Positions 4,070 to 17,545 of a stretch of DNA of 18,141 nucleotides are shown in pieces. The stretch covers positions 1 through 18,141 of the forward strand of contig JAQVNC010000015.1 of assembly GCA_028703305.1 (NCBI GenBank), read 5' to 3'. The notes under the pieces are model-generated. The model ran no database searches. It saw only the letters and a program-made list of their open reading frames with translations, and was not told where the DNA came from. Position 1 is the stretch's first letter, and the number at the start of each line of letters is the position of its first letter. The position numbers were made by a program, and so were the translations under genes. This DNA is from Patescibacteria group bacterium. GTDB taxonomy: Bacteria > Patescibacteriota > Patescibacteriia > Patescibacteriales > GWC2-42-12.

Positions 4070-4795
4070 TCAAGCCAAACGCGTAATTATAAAAATTAAA
4101 GCCGTACCTAAAATAGTCAGGCCGATAAGCTTAAATGAACTCTTTTGACTATGGGCTTCCGGTAAAATATCACTGGCGCCGATATAAAGCAAAAAGCCGG
4201 CGAAAAAGCCTAAATATAAAACCAAGAAATGCGCCGAGACTGTAAAAAATAAAGTTGACAGAGCGCCTAAAACCGGGGCGATTGAATCCAACAATAAAAA
4301 CATTTTGGCTTTAGCCGTACTGTTCTTATGGCTAAGCATCAAAGTTATGGTATTCATGCCGTCGGTAAAATCATGCGAAATTACGGCGATGGCAACCAAT
4401 AAGCCGACCGTCGGGCTTACTTGAAAGCCAAGGCCGATGCCTACCCCGTCCATAAAACTATGGCCGGCCAAAGCCAAGGCCGAGAGCATCCCGACTTGGG
4501 GATGTTTATGGTCGGCATAATCTTCTTCATGCGCGTGATGGATTAAGATCGTCTTTTCCAATATATGAAAAAGTAAAAAACCAACCACCAAAACTACCAT
4601 AATTTCAATCGGCTTAAAATCATTTATTTTTACTTGCTCCATAATCTCCGGGAAAATATCAAAAAACACCACTCCGAGTATAACTCCGGCTGAAAAAGCC
4701 ATAATTTTATGAAGCTGATTTTTAAACCTGGCGGCAAACATGCCGCCGCCCAAGGTTGAAAAAAAAGTCGCAATGGCAAAAAATATCATTTCCAT
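4070..4795 (-). CDS. ZIP-family (ZupT-like) divalent metal transporter
   Basis: Multi-pass membrane protein of 241 aa. It has a His-rich loop (HHAHEEDYADHKH) and paired metal-binding helix motifs, GHSFMDGVGIG and SHDFTDGMN, typical of ZIP/ZupT. Confidence 0.8.
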   Translation of the reverse strand: MEMIFFAIATFFSTLGGGMFAARFKNQLHKIMAFSAGVILGVVFFDIFPEIMEQVKINDFKPIEIMVVLVVGFLLFHILEKTILIHHAHEEDYADHKHPQVGMLSALALAGHSFMDGVGIGLGFQVSPTVGLLVAIAVISHDFTDGMNTITLMLSHKNSTAKAKMFLLLDSIAPVLGALSTLFFTVSAHFLVLYLGFFAGFLLYIGASDILPEAHSQKSSFKLIGLTILGTALIFIITRLA

Positions 4796-4825: not shown

Positions 4826-7285
4826 TTAAGATAAGGCAACAATTTTTTTCGGCCTCATCTTTAATTTTATTATTTCAATAACCAAAACCAATAAAACCGC
4901 TTTAGCTAAAAGCAAACTCCATTGGAATAAATTTAAAGGCATCAGGCCGAGAATTTTTTGAGTCGGGGGAAAATAAGTTATAATAAACGCCAAGAGCAGG
5001 CTGAAAATTACTACCATAAAAAGCCATTTATTTGACCAAAAATTCTCATACTGCCAAAACGGCTTGCGTAGCGTCCGGCAGGAAAAAATATAAATAACCG
5101 AGCTGAAAGCCAGCGACATAAAAGCCATTGTCTGCCCTAAAATTAAATTCCCGTGATATAAGCCAAAATACCAGAAAAAACCAAGAGAAATAAGGCCGGA
5201 AAGAAGAGAAATCATAATGGTTAAAAAAATGCCAATTTTGTCAAAGATAGGTTCGGCCATGCTTTTAGGCCCTTCAAGCATGGTTTCTTTTTCCTTGGGC
5301 TCAAAGCCTAAAATAAAATCCTCCGGCCCGTCGCATAAAAGATGAAGCCATAGAATCTGCACGACCGTCAGAGGAAAAGGCCAGCCCAAAATTAAAGCGC
5401 CCATAATAACCACAACTTCCGCGAAAGAATTAGACAGGATAAATAAAATTATCTTTTTGATATTTTCAAATACCAGCCTGCCCGCTTCCACCGCGGAAAT
5501 AATCGTCTTAAAATTATTATCCAAAAGTATGAGATCGGCGGTTTCTTTAGCCACTTCCGAAGCGTCGCCGACCACGATGCCGATATTTGATTTTTTAAGG
5601 GCCGGCGCGTCGTTAACCCCGTCGCCGGTCATAGCGACTATTTCTCCAAGTTCCTGCAGAACGCTTACTATTCTTAATTTCTGCTCGGGCGTAACGCGGG
5701 CGAATAATAAAATGTTAGAAATTCGGCTTTTTAATTCTTTGTCATTTAATTTTTCCAATTCATCCCCTTCTAAAATCTGGCCGGAGTTAATCTTTATACC
5801 CAAATATTCCATGATTTTTACGGCCGTGCGATAATAATCTCCGGTAACAACTTTTATTTTAAGGCCGGCCTGCTTAGCGGCTAAAAGCGTCTCTTTTACG
5901 TCCCGGCGCGGCGGATCCCAAAGTCCGACCATGCCGGCCCAAGTAAAATCCGTTAATTTTTTATTTTTTATTTCTTTTAAGTCATCTTTTGATATTTTTT
6001 TGCTCGCCAGAGCCATCACCTTTAAGCCTTTCTCCGCCCAAGCGTCAATTTTAAGCATTAAAGATTTTTGTTCCGCTGCGGACAGTTCGCACATTTTCAT
6101 AATAATTTCCGGCGCTCCTTTGGCCGACGCCAGATATTCATCGCCGCCCCCGGCGTAAGAATTGACCGTTATCATGAATTTATGTTCGCTGCTAAAAGGA
6201 ATTTCAAAAATTCTGTTGGCTTCGTTAAAGGTTTTTTCCTGATCAAAATCTTTCCGCTCCCTTAAAAAATCCCAAAGCGCGATTTCTTCCGTGCCGCTTA
6301 AGTCGTTGCATAAGCACATCGTTAATAAGCCGCTCCCGGCGTCAATAAAATCGGTTTTAACGACTTTCATTTTTCCTTCCGTCAACGTTCCGGTTTTATC
6401 CGTGCAAATCGTTGTAACCGAGCCCAAAGTTTCCACGGCCAAAATTTTTCTTATCAAAGCTTTTCTTTTCAGGCTGTCCTGCATGGCTAAAACCAAGACT
6501 AAAGTTATAACTATCAGCAGGGCTTCTGGGATAATCGCCACTAATAGAACGGCGGAAAGTTCGGCCATCTGCCAAAAATCCCTGCCTGTTAAAAAACCGA
6601 AAATAAACACCAGGGCCGATAAAAAAACCGAAATAAAAATTAAAGTGTGAGTTAATTTTTTTAAACGAACTTGCAGGGTGGTGGCCGGCTCTTCGGTCTT
6701 TTTTAAAGTTTCGGCGATTTTTCCGATTTTAGTCAATGACCCTATTTTTACCACCTCTATTACGGCTCGGCCGGAAGAAACAATTGTCCCCATGAAAACT
6801 TCGCCGCCGGTTTCTTTTTTAACAGCCTCGCTTTCACCGGTCAAAACGGCTTCGTTGGTGAAAAAAGAAAAAGCTTCAATAACTCGCCCGTCAGCCGGCG
6901 CCCTATCCCCAACCGCTAAAAAAACTATATCTCCCGGGACTAACTCTAAAACGTCTATTTCTTGCCTTTGATTATCCCTAAGCACTCTAGCGCTTGGTTT
7001 TACCAGCTTCTTAAGGGCGGCCAGCGTTTGCTGCGTCTTGTTTTCCTGAAAAAATCCCATGAAAGCGTTAATAATAACCACGGAAAAAATCAGCGCGATA
7101 TCAAAATACTTTTGCAGAAAAAGAGAAATCAGGCCGGCCAAACAAAGGATATAGACCAAAGGATTGGCGAATTGCGAAAGAAAAATTCTAATCGCCGGAA
7201 CGGTTTTTTCCGCCGGCAAAACATTTTTGCCGTATTGAATTTGCCTTTTTTTAACTTCTTCGCAAGTTAAGCCTTTTTGTTTCAT
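4826..7285 (-). CDS. Cation-transporting P-type ATPase (P2-type, Ca2+/Mg2+-like; ion not assignable)
   Basis: Motifs seen: TGESEAV (actuator), IPEAL in TM4, CTDKTGTLT (phosphorylation site), KGAPE, VTGDYYRTA and MTGDGVNDAPALK. The N-terminus, GLTCEEVKKRQIQYGKNVL, resembles the Cation_ATPase_N domain. Confidence 0.9.
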   Translation of the reverse strand: MKQKGLTCEEVKKRQIQYGKNVLPAEKTVPAIRIFLSQFANPLVYILCLAGLISLFLQKYFDIALIFSVVIINAFMGFFQENKTQQTLAALKKLVKPSARVLRDNQRQEIDVLELVPGDIVFLAVGDRAPADGRVIEAFSFFTNEAVLTGESEAVKKETGGEVFMGTIVSSGRAVIEVVKIGSLTKIGKIAETLKKTEEPATTLQVRLKKLTHTLIFISVFLSALVFIFGFLTGRDFWQMAELSAVLLVAIIPEALLIVITLVLVLAMQDSLKRKALIRKILAVETLGSVTTICTDKTGTLTEGKMKVVKTDFIDAGSGLLTMCLCNDLSGTEEIALWDFLRERKDFDQEKTFNEANRIFEIPFSSEHKFMITVNSYAGGGDEYLASAKGAPEIIMKMCELSAAEQKSLMLKIDAWAEKGLKVMALASKKISKDDLKEIKNKKLTDFTWAGMVGLWDPPRRDVKETLLAAKQAGLKIKVVTGDYYRTAVKIMEYLGIKINSGQILEGDELEKLNDKELKSRISNILLFARVTPEQKLRIVSVLQELGEIVAMTGDGVNDAPALKKSNIGIVVGDASEVAKETADLILLDNNFKTIISAVEAGRLVFENIKKIILFILSNSFAEVVVIMGALILGWPFPLTVVQILWLHLLCDGPEDFILGFEPKEKETMLEGPKSMAEPIFDKIGIFLTIMISLLSGLISLGFFWYFGLYHGNLILGQTMAFMSLAFSSVIYIFSCRTLRKPFWQYENFWSNKWLFMVVIFSLLLAFIITYFPPTQKILGLMPLNLFQWSLLLAKAVLLVLVIEIIKLKMRPKKIVALS

Positions 7286-8021: not shown

Positions 8022-8675
8022 TTATTTCAATAGCTCGCTGATTATGCTTTTCATGCCTTTATTGCTCCGGCCGTCAGGCGAAATAAAATCTTCAAACGGA
8101 TAAGCGCCGGGATAAATATTGTTGTTGACAAAAATTGTCGGCGTGCCGGTAGCGCCGGCTTTATCGCCCTCGGCCTTTTGTTGGCTGATTTTATCTTTAT
8201 ATTTGCCGCCGGTTAAACATTGATTAAATTGCTCTTGGTTTAAGCCTAAATCAATCGCATCCTGTTTAAATTGCTCTTCGCTTAATCGTCCGGCCTGGTT
8301 ATCGGCAAATAACTTATCATGCATTTCCCAAAACTTACCCTGTTCGGCCGCGCATTCCGAGGCCTCGGCCGCTTTTTCCGCGTCCGGATGACCGGCTAAA
8401 GGGTAATGCCTAAAAGTTATGGCCACCTTATCTTTAAAATTTTCTTCCACTTGTTTCATGGTCTCGGAAAATTTAACGCAAAACGGACATTCAAAATCGC
8501 TGTAGACAATCATAGCGACCGGCGCATTCGGATTGCCCCAAACATGATCAGTCTGGTCAACCGGCTTGGCCGTTTGATTATTTTGCGTCGTTTGGTTGTT
8601 TCTGGTTATGAAAATAAAACCGACTGCAACTATGGCAATCGCGATTATTAAAAATATTTTATTTTGCTTGGACAT
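8022..8675 (-). CDS. Membrane-anchored DsbA/BdbD-like thiol:disulfide oxidoreductase (thioredoxin fold)
   Basis: N-terminal TM anchor (IFLIIAIAIVAVGFIFI). CPFC active site in YSDFECPFCVKF. DsbA-family tail GATGTPTIFVNN (cis-Pro loop). Confidence 0.8.
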   Translation of the reverse strand: MSKQNKIFLIIAIAIVAVGFIFITRNNQTTQNNQTAKPVDQTDHVWGNPNAPVAMIVYSDFECPFCVKFSETMKQVEENFKDKVAITFRHYPLAGHPDAEKAAEASECAAEQGKFWEMHDKLFADNQAGRLSEEQFKQDAIDLGLNQEQFNQCLTGGKYKDKISQQKAEGDKAGATGTPTIFVNNNIYPGAYPFEDFISPDGRSNKGMKSIISELLK

Positions 8676-10922: not shown

Positions 10923-13435
<2,513 letters not shown>

Positions 13436-13488: not shown

Positions 13489-14085
13489 TTAAAATAAGCA
13501 GCTGAAATTCCAAGGAAAAGCCATGGGAAAAACAAAATTGCAACCTGCCGGCGGAGCGGGTTCGCAAGCTCCGTCTACGCACGATTCGCCGTCGCCGCAA
13601 GAGCCGCAAGAACCGCCGCAGCCGTCATCTCCGCAAACTTTACCGGTACAATCCGGCGTACAAACAGGAAGTTCGCTGACTAAATATGTGCTTTCCACCG
13701 ATCTTTTAGCGCCGGCATAAATGCCAATTGATTTAAAAGTAACATAAGACGTTGAACTGGCATAATTTACCTGATAAGCGCTATTGTTGCCAAGATCAGC
13801 CAGGCTAAAAACATTATCGGTATCTACGTCAGGTAAAGCATAACTGTTTTTTCTGGCTTCCCATAAAGCCCGCTCCATACCGGCTTCGGATGCGAAATAT
13901 GCCAGGTTTGAATAACCGGCCAAACGGTTCATCTTTATGCCGGCTAAAACCAACTCGGCGGCGCCTAAAGTAATAATTAAAATACCGGATAAAATAAACA
14001 AAGTTAAAAGTAAAATTACGCCTTTTTGATTTTTTATATTATTATAAAATAAATTCATATTGAAAAATTTTTTAGGAGCCTTCAT
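13489..14085 (-). CDS. PilX/GspK-like pseudopilin lacking Glu+5, with a C-terminal Cys-rich module
   Basis: KNQKG|VILLLTLFILSGILIITLGAA is a class III-like leader, but with Leu at +5. AYFASEAGMERAL resembles the PilX N-terminal domain. There are 10 Cys in residues 142-196. The ATG at 14085 overlaps the upstream stop by 14 nt; the alternative Met10 is at 14058. Confidence 0.65.
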   Translation of the reverse strand: MKAPKKFFNMNLFYNNIKNQKGVILLLTLFILSGILIITLGAAELVLAGIKMNRLAGYSNLAYFASEAGMERALWEARKNSYALPDVDTDNVFSLADLGNNSAYQVNYASSTSYVTFKSIGIYAGAKRSVESTYLVSELPVCTPDCTGKVCGDDGCGGSCGSCGDGESCVDGACEPAPPAGCNFVFPMAFPWNFSCLF

Positions 14086-14665
14086 AATACCTTGAAGAAA
14101 CCGTCATTTGAATTTTCATTCTCTGCTCATGTATCGCCTGCCCGACAGCTTTAACATCTACTAACATAGTAACGTAAGGCTGAATACCGGGCAAAGCGCC
14201 AATTAAATCATCATTCACGTAAAATTTTAAATTGCTGACTTCAATTTTTGCCGGAGTAATAAAACCTTCAACATTGCCGGCATCAGACTCGGCCATTATC
14301 TTAAGGCGATTATCTTCCAGATAATAAACCACGCAATTGCCATATTGATTTTTAAAATAAAGCTTGCTATTATCGCCGGTTGTATTAAAAACTTTAAAAA
14401 CCGCGGTCGGCGGCACGCTAAACATATCTTCGCAATCATGATTGCTAATTCCCGCCATTCTGATTTCTTTGCTTATTTTTTCCATGGCGTATCTCATGCT
14501 CTCTTGCACGTTTTGCGCGCTGATAGAGCTTCTTTGCCCGTCAATTACCATTTTAAAAATTCCGGTCGCGACTAACATTAGAACGGAAAAAATCGCTACC
14601 GCGACTATTAATTCCAGCAAACTTACGCCTTTTTCAGCTTTAAATTTTTTTATAAATAAACTCAT
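14072..14665 (-). CDS. Prepilin-type pseudopilin, PilW/GspJ-like
   Basis: KAEKG|VSLLELIVAVAIFSVLMLVATGIF has Gly-1, Glu+5 and a hydrophobic helix. The 197-aa size and its position after a PilV-like gene fit PilW/GspJ. Confidence 0.72.
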   Translation of the reverse strand: MSLFIKKFKAEKGVSLLELIVAVAIFSVLMLVATGIFKMVIDGQRSSISAQNVQESMRYAMEKISKEIRMAGISNHDCEDMFSVPPTAVFKVFNTTGDNSKLYFKNQYGNCVVYYLEDNRLKIMAESDAGNVEGFITPAKIEVSNLKFYVNDDLIGALPGIQPYVTMLVDVKAVGQAIHEQRMKIQMTVSSRYYEGS

Positions 14666-14789: not shown

Positions 14790-15302
14790 TCATCGCCAAT
14801 TATACAAATAAGTTTCGGCCGTATAATTATGGTTTTGCGCGCCGTCTTTCCAGCGGATCTCGCATTTAACATCAAGATAATCAGTATGATCAACCGCGGT
14901 AATTAAGCGATAAAAATTTGTCGGCGCGGCGCTTGTCTCATGAGTATAAAGGCCACTGCCGTTAAGATATAGCCTGGCGCCGTCTTCAGATATGGAATTT
15001 ATGGCCTGACTAATGCTCGCCGGCCCGCGATAATCAATAATATAAGTGCCGTCGCCCACTATATTTTGGTTCCAGGCATTGCCTGGCGTCAGCCAATTTA
15101 AATCCCTGATATTTCTTACCAACTCCAAGCCTTCCTGGGCTAAACCAGAAGCCATTAAAACATTTTTATTGATATATTGGGCTTCCACATTTTGAATTAC
15201 CAGCGACAAAACGCCGATCATGCCCATGGTAATTATCATCATGGCTACCACAACTTCTAAGATGCTAATGCCCGAATTGTTGTAAATTTTTTTTATTTTC
15301 AT
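14790..15302 (-). CDS. Prepilin-type pseudopilin, PilV/GspI-like
   Basis: MKIKKIYNNSG|ISILEVVVAMMIITMGMIGVLSL has Gly-1 and Glu+5, and the GxxG..L tail is typical of PilV. I prefer the ATG at 15302, 1 nt after the upstream TAA, over the TTG at 15317 used by the track. Confidence 0.72.
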   Translation of the reverse strand: MKIKKIYNNSGISILEVVVAMMIITMGMIGVLSLVIQNVEAQYINKNVLMASGLAQEGLELVRNIRDLNWLTPGNAWNQNIVGDGTYIIDYRGPASISQAINSISEDGARLYLNGSGLYTHETSAAPTNFYRLITAVDHTDYLDVKCEIRWKDGAQNHNYTAETYLYNWR

Positions 15303-15303
15303 T

Positions 15304-15837
15304 TTAATCCGTGTCAATTAAGCCGAAAAAATTAACCGAGACTTGAGCCGTTGAATTATTAATATTTTCTTTTAAAACGATTTCCGCGGCCGCGTTGCTT
15401 AAACCATTGATATAAGTTATTGGATCAGGCGGAAAAAAAACAATATCAACCGTATCGGCCGGACTTAAAGAATCTATGGTTATGCCGGCCGGTAAAGTTT
15501 TAGTCTCTACGGCTTCGCTTGCGTCATATGCCTGATCGCCGTTAGGCGCGTTTTTATCGGCAAAAATAATATAACGCGTCGGATCGGTTAAATCAAAATG
15601 CACGCCCCAGCCGCCGCCAGGCGTAGTAACGCCGTCATAAGTTTTTGAACCCAAGCTGTAATTTTGCGCCAGCCTGATATCTGAAGCTAATTTCTGTTTT
15701 ATCACGCCGAGTTCCGAACGCTTATTGGTATCATGGTAATTAACCATAAACAAGCCGCTCATCATCACAACTATAAAAATACTGACCGTTAATTCAATTA
15801 AGGTAAATCCTGATAAATTTTTAGCTTGTTTTTTCAT
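15304..15837 (-). CDS. Prepilin-type pseudopilin, FimT/FimU/GspH-like
   Basis: The canonical N-methylation motif is KNLSG|FTLIELTVSIFIVVMMSG. The following KQKLASDIRLAQNYSL resembles the GspH/FimT helix. Confidence 0.8.
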   Translation of the reverse strand: MKKQAKNLSGFTLIELTVSIFIVVMMSGLFMVNYHDTNKRSELGVIKQKLASDIRLAQNYSLGSKTYDGVTTPGGGWGVHFDLTDPTRYIIFADKNAPNGDQAYDASEAVETKTLPAGITIDSLSPADTVDIVFFPPDPITYINGLSNAAAEIVLKENINNSTAQVSVNFFGLIDTD

Positions 15838-15907: not shown

Positions 15908-17545
15908 CTATTCCGGCTTAACCTCTTTCCATTTTGGCAGCTTGGCGCTAACATTAATCGTCTCTGAAGTTGAAACATAATAGCCGTCGTTATCAGTTAC
16001 TTTTAAAGCCACTGTGAAACTGCCGGCCGAATTAAAAGTTATAATCGGCGAAGTGGTGGCCGAATCATTGATGCTGGCTCCGGCCGTAGCGGTCCAAAGG
16101 TAAGTACAAAGTTCATCCGAACAATCAACCGCCGTATCCGGCGCCGCGGCTAGATACACTTTACTGATATTAGTAAAGCTAACTTGCTCGCTTTTACTAG
16201 GATTATTCGGAGAATAAGTAAAATCCGGTTCAGGCATTTTATGCTTATAGGTGGTAAAAGTTGGGACTACGCCGTCATCATTATCCGTATCCGGATTAGT
16301 GTCATAATCCTTGATAGCCGAAGCTATCTCGCTATCATCCCATACTTGAACCGACCATTTATAACCTTGATTATAGTCCAGCAAAGCGCTGTCTAGTATA
16401 TATTGGCAGACGCAATCGCCCGGACTAACGCAGCCGGTCGCGCCGTTTTCCAGGCAAATAGTATTATCAATTTTACAATCGGCCGAGGGCGTCTGATAGC
16501 CGGTGCATACGCCCGTATCTAACACCGCGGTATCATCGGCTTTCTTTACGATAACTTGATAAGCCGAGCCGTAGGAGCCGGTATCCGCGTCAACCATATT
16601 AAATTGCAAATTGGCGCGCAAGGCGCCGCTAACCGCGGCCTGGGCATAAGTCCAGTTAGGCGCGGTTAGTCCGGAAACCTCCGGGGCCTGATTAACCGAT
16701 ACGAATTTAACTTTATAATCAACTGTGCCGCAGCTTGAATCGTTATTGCAATTAAAACTTACCCAGCCAACCTGTTCGCCATAAGCCCAGCCCTCAAATT
16801 CATTGGTGGTAAAATTTATTTTTACTTGGCTGGCGCCGGCCGGAGCAAAATCAATCCAGCCGGCCTGTTCGCCATAAGCCGTACCGCTTAAATTGCCAAA
16901 GCCGTCATTTAAAACGCCGCCGCCGGCCGGAAATAAATTAATCCAGCCTAATTGTTCCGAGTAGGCATAGCCTTCAAGATGGTCGGTATAGACGGTAGTG
17001 GTAGCCATGTCCGGATTATTAAACTTAATCCAGCCAACCTGCTCGCTAAAAGCATAGTCTTCGGCATAACCTAATAATATTTGCTGGGTAACGCCATAAC
17101 CGATACCGGAAAAACTAATCCAGCCGACACTCTCACCCCAGGCATAGCCGGAAAAAACTCCGTTTTCATCAACGCTCACGCCGCCGCCGGCCGGCGCGAA
17201 ATCAATATAGCCGGTTTGCTCGCCCCAGGCATAGCCGGAAAGCGTACCGCCGCTATTTAATACCCGGTAAAAATTCGCCGCGCAAGATCCGCCGTCAGTA
17301 TTAGCGCAATCCATGCTAATCCAGCCCAGATTCTCGCTCCAGGCCCAGCCGGTTAATTTATCGGCTTCAACCATGGTTTCATAGCCCTCCGGCGCCAGAT
17401 TTATCCAGCCGGTTAACTCGCCCCAGGCATAGCCGGAAGCCTGATCGGCCGCGGACGCGGTAAAAGAATGGCTGTTATATATCAGAATTGCCACAAGCGC
17501 TGACAAAGCCAATAAAAATGAAAATTTTAAATATTTTTTAAGCAT
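15908..17545 (-). CDS. Secreted multidomain protein: Sec signal, 8 aromatic repeats, Fn3-like domain with a Cys-rich insert, C-terminal PKD-like domain
   Basis: Signal peptide LLALSALVAILIY...FTASA|AD. Eight copies of G[YW]A[WYF][GS]ExxG[WY]Ix[FLM]. The C-terminus FTYSP...YLWTATAG...FTVALKVTDNDGY fits the PKD pattern. Confidence 0.85.
   Translation of the reverse strand: MLKKYLKFSFLLALSALVAILIYNSHSFTASAADQASGYAWGELTGWINLAPEGYETMVEADKLTGWAWSENLGWISMDCANTDGGSCAANFYRVLNSGGTLSGYAWGEQTGYIDFAPAGGGVSVDENGVFSGYAWGESVGWISFSGIGYGVTQQILLGYAEDYAFSEQVGWIKFNNPDMATTTVYTDHLEGYAYSEQLGWINLFPAGGGVLNDGFGNLSGTAYGEQAGWIDFAPAGASQVKINFTTNEFEGWAYGEQVGWVSFNCNNDSSCGTVDYKVKFVSVNQAPEVSGLTAPNWTYAQAAVSGALRANLQFNMVDADTGSYGSAYQVIVKKADDTAVLDTGVCTGYQTPSADCKIDNTICLENGATGCVSPGDCVCQYILDSALLDYNQGYKWSVQVWDDSEIASAIKDYDTNPDTDNDDGVVPTFTTYKHKMPEPDFTYSPNNPSKSEQVSFTNISKVYLAAAPDTAVDCSDELCTYLWTATAGASINDSATTSPIITFNSAGSFTVALKVTDNDGYYVSTSETINVSAKLPKWKEVKPE
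16751..17434 (-). repeat. In-frame coding repeat array (8 units, 28-38 aa period) inside the 545-aa gene
   Basis: Repeat cores start at residues 38, 66, 104, 133, 163, 192, 221 and 252. DNA-level identical 22-mers lie at 17218-17239 and 17417-17438. Identical 17-mers lie at 16914-16930 and 17177-17193. Confidence 0.85.

Follow-up and report, generated by a model that had tools for sequence, protein, structure and literature searches.

The window, by which we mean the whole 18,141-nucleotide (nt) stretch analysed here (contig JAQVNC010000015.1 of assembly GCA_028703305.1), belongs to an uncultured Patescibacteria bacterium and carries on its minus strand a run of four minor pilin genes, the last of which, called here the K pilin gene after its fourth place in an H-I-J-K series, ends in a compact cysteine-rich module. 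We think it probable, with some reserve, that this gene is real and intact and that it encodes a PilX-type tip pilin whose eight-Cys unit forms a "bare stalk" spacer at the place where variable heads are grafted in relatives. Type IV pili are believed to be the means by which Patescibacteria locate and grip their hosts. The gene and its parts, with lengths in amino acids (aa), are as follows.

13489–14085, minus strand: PilX-type (fourth, K-position) minor pilin gene, 198 aa plus stop, identified from the list of open reading frames (ORFs), synteny and hhalign.
14020–14085, minus strand: leader, residues 1–22, MKAPKKFFNMNLFYNNIKNQKG, with predicted prepilin-type cleavage after Gly22.
13684–14019, minus strand: pilin core, residues 23–134, a long N-terminal helix and a three-stranded sheet, Cys-free.
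13663–13683, minus strand: linker, residues 135–141 (LVSELPV); in relatives Gly/Ser-rich, 5–12 residues long and in the same place.
13564–13662, minus strand: one eight-Cys repeat unit, residues 142–174, 33 aa, with the consensus CxPxCxGKxCGxDGCGGSCGxCxxGxxCxxGxC.
13492–13563, minus strand: unconserved Phe-rich tail, residues 175–198, EPAPPAGCNFVFPMAFPWNFSCLF, with two further Cys (Cys182 and Cys196).

First, relatives show where the module sits. It is present on the K pilin in five of the 11 congeneric genomes (198, 339, 681, 767, and 813 aa), the remaining six have the core only, and the fusion of module and K pilin is absent from every other genus of the family; a large protein database yielded three further fused K pilins, all metagenomic (P0280, P0284, and P0285; 512, 667, and 1306 aa). 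There are thus seven K fusions besides that of the window, four of them (L004, L005, L006, and L009) from other genomes of the genus. In the long versions the order is the same every time, namely core, Gly/Ser linker of 5–12 residues, a single module, and then distal domains, among which are ~60-aa Cys/Trp repeats, Laminin_G_3 with Lcl_C, InlB B-repeats with a Gly-rich part, and fibrinogen C; the heads of L004 and L006, for instance, are of the Laminin_G_3/Lcl_C and the B-repeat/Lcl-like kind, respectively. Some members of the K family carry a FISUMP domain directly, without the module. The junction also occurs on J-type pilins, one in genome G014 (core, module, and FISUMP) and one in genome G013 (L063, G013:C18, 3932–5284; core, module, and three ~60-aa repeats, with the C-terminus MFPLYFNITFPLIF). 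Because a single module lies between core and distal domains in these relatives, the module is, as far as sequence can tell, what joins modular tip pilins to their added domains on the proximal side, and not their distal functional end. The original prediction had made it the most distal structure of the filament, a claim that the comparison does not support, and had proposed a survey of related genomes for the same fusion, which did turn up the identical junction in the seven other K pilins. Within the genus, we suggest that the eight-Cys unit is the standard junction at which variable adhesin-like domains are attached to K and J tip pilins.

The ~60-aa repeat, which can be written Y.C..KP..GT.WNTVS.Y.QTW.G..W.P....T.YN.....C[RE]Y.C...Y.W[ND]G..C, was seen in L004, L006, L009, L063, L064, P0284, and P0285, that is to say on pilins, where it follows the module, as well as in further surface proteins from this genus, and has no Pfam match. 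L064 (G013:C16, 2393–4813, minus strand) is an 807-aa surface protein that combines Cys repeats of the FCGDG...E.CDNG type, one such ~60-aa Trp/Cys repeat, and one eight-Cys unit; searched against NCBIfam and Pfam at E ≤ 10, it matched no Cys-repeat family, TIGR02232 and PF13948 included.

Second, the module belongs to a large family of repeats. Residues 142–198 (13492–13662, minus strand; CTPDCTGKVCGDDGCGGSCGSCGDGESCVDGACEPAPPAGCNFVFPMAFPWNFSCLF) hold ten Cys, with gaps of 3, 4, 4, 3, 2, 5, and 4 and then of 7 and 13, and there is no other Cys in the K pilin; the ten-Cys tail and the spacing first reported for it are exact. A phmmer search with the last 61 aa retrieved 3316 cluster representatives at E ≤ 1e-3 (1099 at E ≤ 1e-10 and 140 at E ≤ 1e-30), the matches always covering residues ~4–38 of the query, and in such comparisons the Cys pattern is far beyond chance. 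Matching proteins hold up to 43 tandem copies. In an alignment of 65 repeats, comprising 59 from four multi-copy proteins plus the pilin-borne copies, eight Cys and two Gly are invariant and conservation is confined to Cys, Gly, and Asp; the family spacing is 3-4-4-3-2-(5/6)-(4/5), the window unit fits every conserved column, and the repeat profile matches it at E 1.2e-14. This unit is the sole copy of the repeat in its genome. Across 401 sampled Patescibacteria genomes the unit is rare, being found in eight, and elsewhere it lies on non-pilin surface proteins.

Those carriers that are named by their sources are Myxococcota, and many carriers have lipoprotein or signal leaders. The unit occurs in lipoproteins and, in runs, between or after the domains of a GH18 chitinase, a GH9 endoglucanase, an M23 peptidase, and sedolisin-like peptidases (P0297, P0157, P0289, P0296, and P0307). 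Some of the enzyme carriers also bear a distinct C-terminal Cys motif annotated by the source as PF26780, which was rejected as the family of the eight-Cys unit because, by inspection, it is a different motif. No model in Pfam or NCBIfam matches the unit, even in proteins with 15–27 copies, and the 61-aa C-terminal stretch of the K pilin has no match there at E ≤ 10. The original prediction had likened the module to secreted Cys-rich repeats of the myxobacterial type and had pointed to the Cys-rich repeat models as the place to look for it: the recurrence in secreted proteins, those of Myxococcota included, is confirmed, but the last ~60 residues match no Pfam or TIGRFAM Cys-rich repeat at E ≤ 10, and TIGR02232/PF13948 (DUF4215; Myxococcus cysteine-rich repeat) was rejected as the identity of the module, since neither of the two models, both of them in the libraries searched, hit anything in the genome at that threshold. 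The module profile has no relative among sequences of the PDB, and a literature search with the motif string returned no relevant paper.

What the unit does may be approached through its surroundings, which include, ~5 kb from the K pilin gene, the following gene.

8022–8675, minus strand: membrane-anchored DsbA-like thiol-disulfide oxidoreductase (Thioredoxin_4 1.9e-30, DSBA 9.9e-22; CPFC motif).

The lipoprotein and signal leaders of the carriers, together with this gene, support an extracytoplasmic context for the unit, and the DsbA-like protein is a candidate catalyst for the putative disulfides of the module. The evidence argues for an extracytoplasmic, disulfide-braced spacer, most likely small and rigid. 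The module has a guanine-plus-cytosine (GC) content of 0.62–0.64 versus 0.37 in the core, with a third-position value (GC3) of 0.53; recent horizontal acquisition was considered and set aside, as the Gly, Cys, Asp, and Pro content and the preference of the host for GGC and TGC account for the difference.

It is tempting to see in such a unit the functional tip itself, a compact Cys-knot at the fibre apex that binds a host or substrate ligand directly. The window allele has only a short tail past the module, the module retains all consensus positions, and the repeat is plentiful both in carbohydrate-active enzymes and on the surface of Myxococcota, among which predators are known. We nevertheless regard a directly binding tip as unlikely, given that the conserved positions are restricted to Cys, Gly, and Asp with no conserved aromatic or charged surface, that the module is proximal in the seven other pilin fusions and followed by recognizable binding domains, that its runs between or after enzyme domains look linker-like, and that six congeners manage without any extension. 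On the spacer reading, the module of the window allele is probably an exposed stub that lacks a recognition function, and recognition would be left to other products of the cassette.

Third, the protein to which the module is attached has the marks of a PilX-type pilin. The K pilin reads ...NQKG|VILLLTLFILSG, with predicted cleavage after Gly22 and with Leu, not Glu, at +5 of the predicted mature VILLLT N-terminus, so that the mature protein would open with VILLLTLFIL, a hydrophobic helix that follows the leader Gly and is devoid of Glu5; the cleavage-site pattern KNQxG|VILLLT is kept across 37 orthologues (alignment A1). Leu in place of Glu at +5 is a hallmark of the top subunit (GspK/PilX), and Korotkov and Hol reportedly described GspK, in 2008, as the subunit that lacks Glu5 and tops the GspI-J-K complex at the tip. 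As the Glu5-less fourth subunit of H-I-J-K, the K pilin would prime assembly and end up at the fibre tip, by analogy with type IV pili and type II secretion systems. In its database entry the start is placed at Met10 (14058), which leaves 189 aa. Some 190 orthologues are known, nearly all of ~125 aa and some named PilX by the Joint Genome Institute (JGI), and those in alignment A1 terminate at ...KRSVESTYExQ; the core is accordingly small, ~125 aa, or ~112 residues past the leader. AlphaFold2 (AF2) gives the K pilin a lollipop shape, with a helix at 21–79 and strands at 103–135, at a predicted local distance difference test score (pLDDT) of 65–95. Foldseek with the whole model found no PDB match at E ≤ 1e-3, and the sequence profile of the core found nothing meaningful in the PDB.

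The kinship of the core to PilX was assessed at the level of profiles. The PilX_N model (PF14341) matches six of 37 members of the K family, weakly (best E 0.22), and L022, L024, L025, and L027 pass it at 27.6–43.4 bits. In hhalign, A1 aligns with A4, an alignment of bona fide PilX_N proteins, over 100 columns with a probability of 98% and E 2.3e-13, a result to be read with the caveat that the A4 loci, which are more distant, were collected with motifs from A1. The core also has an FxAxEAGLE motif after the helix, as PilX_N and GspK do. Taken at the level of these profiles, the K core is a diverged, minimal PilX_N-type pilin and not a GspK: at ~125 aa it is too small for the alpha-domain of GspK, and GspK (gspK/T2SSK) is absent from the Pfam and NCBIfam matches of the K pilin at E ≤ 1. 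The original designation as PilX/GspK-like is borne out in the position within H-I-J-K, in the Glu5-less G|VILLL leader, and in the PilX_N profile homology; its GspK half is not, for want of a GspK match and given the ~125-aa core.

The K pilin gene closes a cassette whose other members lie upstream of it on the same strand.

14072–14665, minus strand: PilW/GspJ-like minor pilin, with N_methyl and weak prepilin peptidase-dependent protein, GspJ, and ComGF matches; it overlaps the first ATG of the K pilin gene by 14 nt.
14790–15317, minus strand: PilV/GspI-like minor pilin, with TIGR02523 and gspI matches below cut-off, syntenic in relatives.
15304–15837, minus strand: GspH/FimU-like minor pilin, with GspH and N_methyl matches.
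15908–17545, minus strand: 545-aa secreted aromatic-repeat/PKD protein at the head of the cassette, with a PKD match, kept upstream of H in relatives.

The order large protein-H-I-J-K-ligA is kept at no fewer than 17 loci of related Patescibacteria. The genome, of 925 kb and 98% complete, encodes a prepilin peptidase (PilD), three PilB-like ATPases, and several PilT-like ATPases, so the cassette has machinery to work with.

Fourth, the end of the window allele is probably genuine. The tail has no significant homologue in the phmmer search with the C-terminal 61 aa or in the 25 genomes of the family, is predicted to be disordered (AF2 pLDDT < 50), and has 51% T in its last 17 codons; 3′ of the gene comes a 53-nt spacer of 96% AT and then another gene, orf127. 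One might take the tail, or the whole extension, for an assembly or frameshift artefact, the true gene being core-only or running into a distal domain, and it is the case that the exact window protein comes from a single contig and that its last 24 residues are without homologue. We judge this to be very improbable, because seven other K pilins, including four from elsewhere in the genus, repeat the junction of core and module, and the gene that follows has a start of its own and an N-terminal anchor that is conserved. A hidden continuation by frameshift is rejected on two grounds: all three frames stop within 30 codons past the module, and when the 3′ region was compared with the long relatives by tblastx and blastn, homology went no further than the module end. 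The fusion itself is no artefact: the seven other K pilins bear it at the same junction. The tail was also considered as a remnant of CxYxCxxxYxWNGxxC, the end of the ~60-aa repeats, and rejected, since a hidden Markov model (HMM) built from five instances scores it at −2.2 bits, a value reached by about half of 5000 shuffles.

Fifth, there are signs of rapid turnover in whatever lies past the junction. In a tree built from the cassette proteins that flank the K pilin, loci with the module are scattered among core-only loci, and the branches starred there force at least two changes. The cassettes of L009 (G014) and L006 (G017) share 91–94% DNA identity, with homology that breaks off where the J core stops and, in K, ~22 codons into the module, and that resumes at ligA; the two differ only in the J extension (module and FISUMP, in G014 only) and in K past codon ~22 of the module, where 516 nt stand against 1.8 kb. 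The loss of homology in mid-module suggests cassette swapping in which everything distal to that point was replaced, and this one genome pair supports, by sequence comparison, an exchange of cassettes whose breakpoint falls within the conserved unit. Recombination would be the means by which the distal part is so rapidly exchanged. For the window allele, the unconserved T-rich tail, the early stops, and the insertion of orf127 before ligA lead us to infer that the segment was replaced and a bare stalk left; the allele most likely arose by replacement of the segment from mid-module, or just after the module, to ligA, which would have brought in orf127 and truncated the pilin.

The inserted gene deserves a closer look.

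13052–13435, minus strand: orf127, 127 aa, with a signal anchor and 8 Cys, inserted between the K pilin gene and ligA.

Among the syntenic loci, numbering at least 17, a gene of this type is found at the K–ligA position elsewhere only in L019, and in the others ligA follows directly. L019 carries orf127-like genes at 63–482 and 4489–4755. Within the 25 genomes of the family, the orf127 family is confined to the window's genome (G000) and G013, and adjoins the pilin cassette both times; the G013 relative lies at 6664–7335 of L063 (G013:C18), and the AT-rich region upstream of orf127 resembles that of this homologue. The family is sporadic, with members of 127, 139, and 223 aa in which the N-terminal anchor is conserved ([DE]AKTGGSG.LSE.NWN in part) and the C-terminal parts vary, and orf127 has no Pfam match. 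In G013, a 356-aa ORF that by eye is RhuM-like, with a hairpin upstream, lies 3′ of the J pilin gene and precedes the orf127 relative. As for the tails, NFVFPMAFPWNFSCLF in the window and MFPLYFNITFPLIF at the end of the G013 J pilin are identical at 6 of 16 positions (shuffle p ~0.003, post hoc), both being of a Phe/Pro type. A special kinship between the window module and the G013 J module was looked for and dismissed: the two share 26 of 33 residues versus 25 of 33 for the G018 K module, which is not distinctive.

These neighbours raise the thought of a split modular pilin, in which a partner acting in trans (orf127 or else the 545-aa protein) would dock onto module and tail and be held by the two tail Cys or by the hydrophobic tail. 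The placement of orf127 directly downstream, with a homologue in a single other genome of the 25 (G013), agrees with such an arrangement, as do the position of that homologue 3′ of a module-bearing J pilin with a similar Phe/Pro tail and the fact that the tail brings two Cys in addition to the repeat's own eight. Yet the tail is unconserved, its likeness to the G013 tail was noticed only after the fact, and the orf127-like genes of L019 adjoin a pilin that is core-only. We therefore see docking as distinctly unlikely, and prefer to read the stretch past the core as a bare stalk.

Several points weigh against that preferred reading and should be set beside it. The tip location of the K pilin is predicted by analogy. 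PilX_N (PF14341, cut-off 25.5 bits) does not match the K pilin itself at E ≤ 1. Whether given the family alignment or the 65-repeat alignment, AF2 places the module at a pLDDT of ~50, so there is no confident three-dimensional model of it. The retention of every conserved position in the window module is unexpected for an old, functionless stub. The tree is compatible with either direction of change, a distal domain that was lost or one that was never gained. Finally, a VKOR partner for the DsbA-like protein was not found in the genome.

A bolder generalization is conceivable. The eight-Cys unit might be a universal "socket" for the exchange of host-recognition cassettes on the tip pilins of this genus, with the window allele as an empty socket; the conserved DNA and protein would then serve at once as recombination breakpoint and as a junction independent of the fold attached, and J and K pilins would swap lectin or adhesin heads on the timescale of species. 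We regard this as doubtful, though worth keeping in mind; if true, it would amount to a diversification system of the pilus tip with an outcome analogous to the exchange of tail-fibre cassettes in phages. In more limited terms, the C-terminal end of PilX- and PilW-type tip pilins emerges as a hot spot, near-identical operons differing only there, and a single genus presents core-only pilins, FISUMP-fused pilins, and pilins with one Cys unit followed by a lectin, InlB-repeat, Lcl_C, or fibrinogen-like head. If the heads set the host range, they would offer a sequence-defined handle on the host specificity of uncultured episymbionts. The window specimen is the least informative member of this series, a stalk without a head. 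The unit itself, very common in bacteria outside the cytoplasm and lacking both a Pfam or NCBIfam model and a structure, deserves curation.

The design has precedents. Modular type IV pilins include PilB (vWA module) and PilC (lectin module) of Streptococcus sanguinis, and a survey counted >1,200 of them in 264 architectures, many from Patescibacteria and with FISUMP (IPR011871) and ConA-lectin among the common modules (PMC8179133, PMC9934059). Like them, the K pilin joins a small pilin module at its N-terminus, by way of a short linker, to a non-pilin module grafted on at the C-terminus, and pilins of this kind are predicted to be tip-exposed; it is a modular pilin sensu Raynaud et al. 2021 (PMC8179133), with a core (23–134), a linker (135–141), and a unit (142–174) found in thousands of non-pilins, and its family shares the FISUMP and ConA-lectin modules of the survey. 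It is unlike them in that its PilX-type leader lacks the IPR012902 N-methyl motif that the survey required, and in that its module is a 33-aa uncurated Cys repeat rather than a functional domain, one which in relatives acts as an adaptor to effector domains. In the saccharibacterium Nanosynbacter lyticus TM7x, PilX1 and PilX2 have no canonical PilD signal and end in C-terminal lectin-like domains, and PilX2 is required for host binding and has been proposed as a tip adhesin (PMC11623550). These, too, are Patescibacteria minor pilins named PilX with, as in the present family, a C-terminal accessory part, although they come from a different class, the accessory parts being a beta-jelly roll and a beta-propeller with no Cys-rich junction reported, and the likeness is one of description. 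The original prediction held the module to be undescribed on a cap subunit; this is so for the Cys-unit junction, whereas the overall design is that of modular pilins, known also for Patescibacteria PilX (PMC8179133, PMC11623550). New here are the use of an uncurated eight-Cys unit as a junction, its occurrence on both J and K tip pilins of one genus, and the signs that what lies distal to it is rapidly exchanged.

Other systems offer partial parallels. Like PilX_N and GspK, the K pilin comes fourth, behind H, I, and J, and has a hydrophobic helix without Glu5; unlike GspK, it has no alpha-domain inserted in the core, and its extra module is appended at the C-terminus instead of being inserted. 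TraA is built of a variable domain, Cys-rich repeats, and a MYXO-CTERM, with the repeats between the anchor and the variable recognition domain (PMC13184517). The eight-Cys unit resembles such myxobacterial Cys-rich repeats (TIGR02232/PF13948) in being short, putatively of the disulfide type, extracytoplasmic, placed between anchor and variable domain, and abundant in Myxococcota, but differs in its Cys spacing and its GxDGCGGSCG core. The type IVb tip minor pilins CofB and TcpB have linker-connected extra domains, that of CofB being an adaptor for the secreted CofJ (PMC8179133); by description, these domains are a beta-repeat and a beta-sandwich and, unlike the window module, are not Cys-rich.

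Two minor observations concern gene boundaries and paralogues. The mechanical ligA ORF (10957–13128, minus strand) begins at a TTG that overlaps orf127, and relatives place the conserved N-terminus at MNKLEIKK (~13020). Elsewhere in the genome there is a second, larger PilX_N-like paralogue (G000:C30:845-1099, minus strand; 379-aa ORF; weak PF14341 match, E 0.146, the sole one when the whole genome was scanned), which has 411–424 aa in congeners, lies near a PilB-like ATPase gene (C30:4601-5806), and may serve a second pilus system as its tip pilin.

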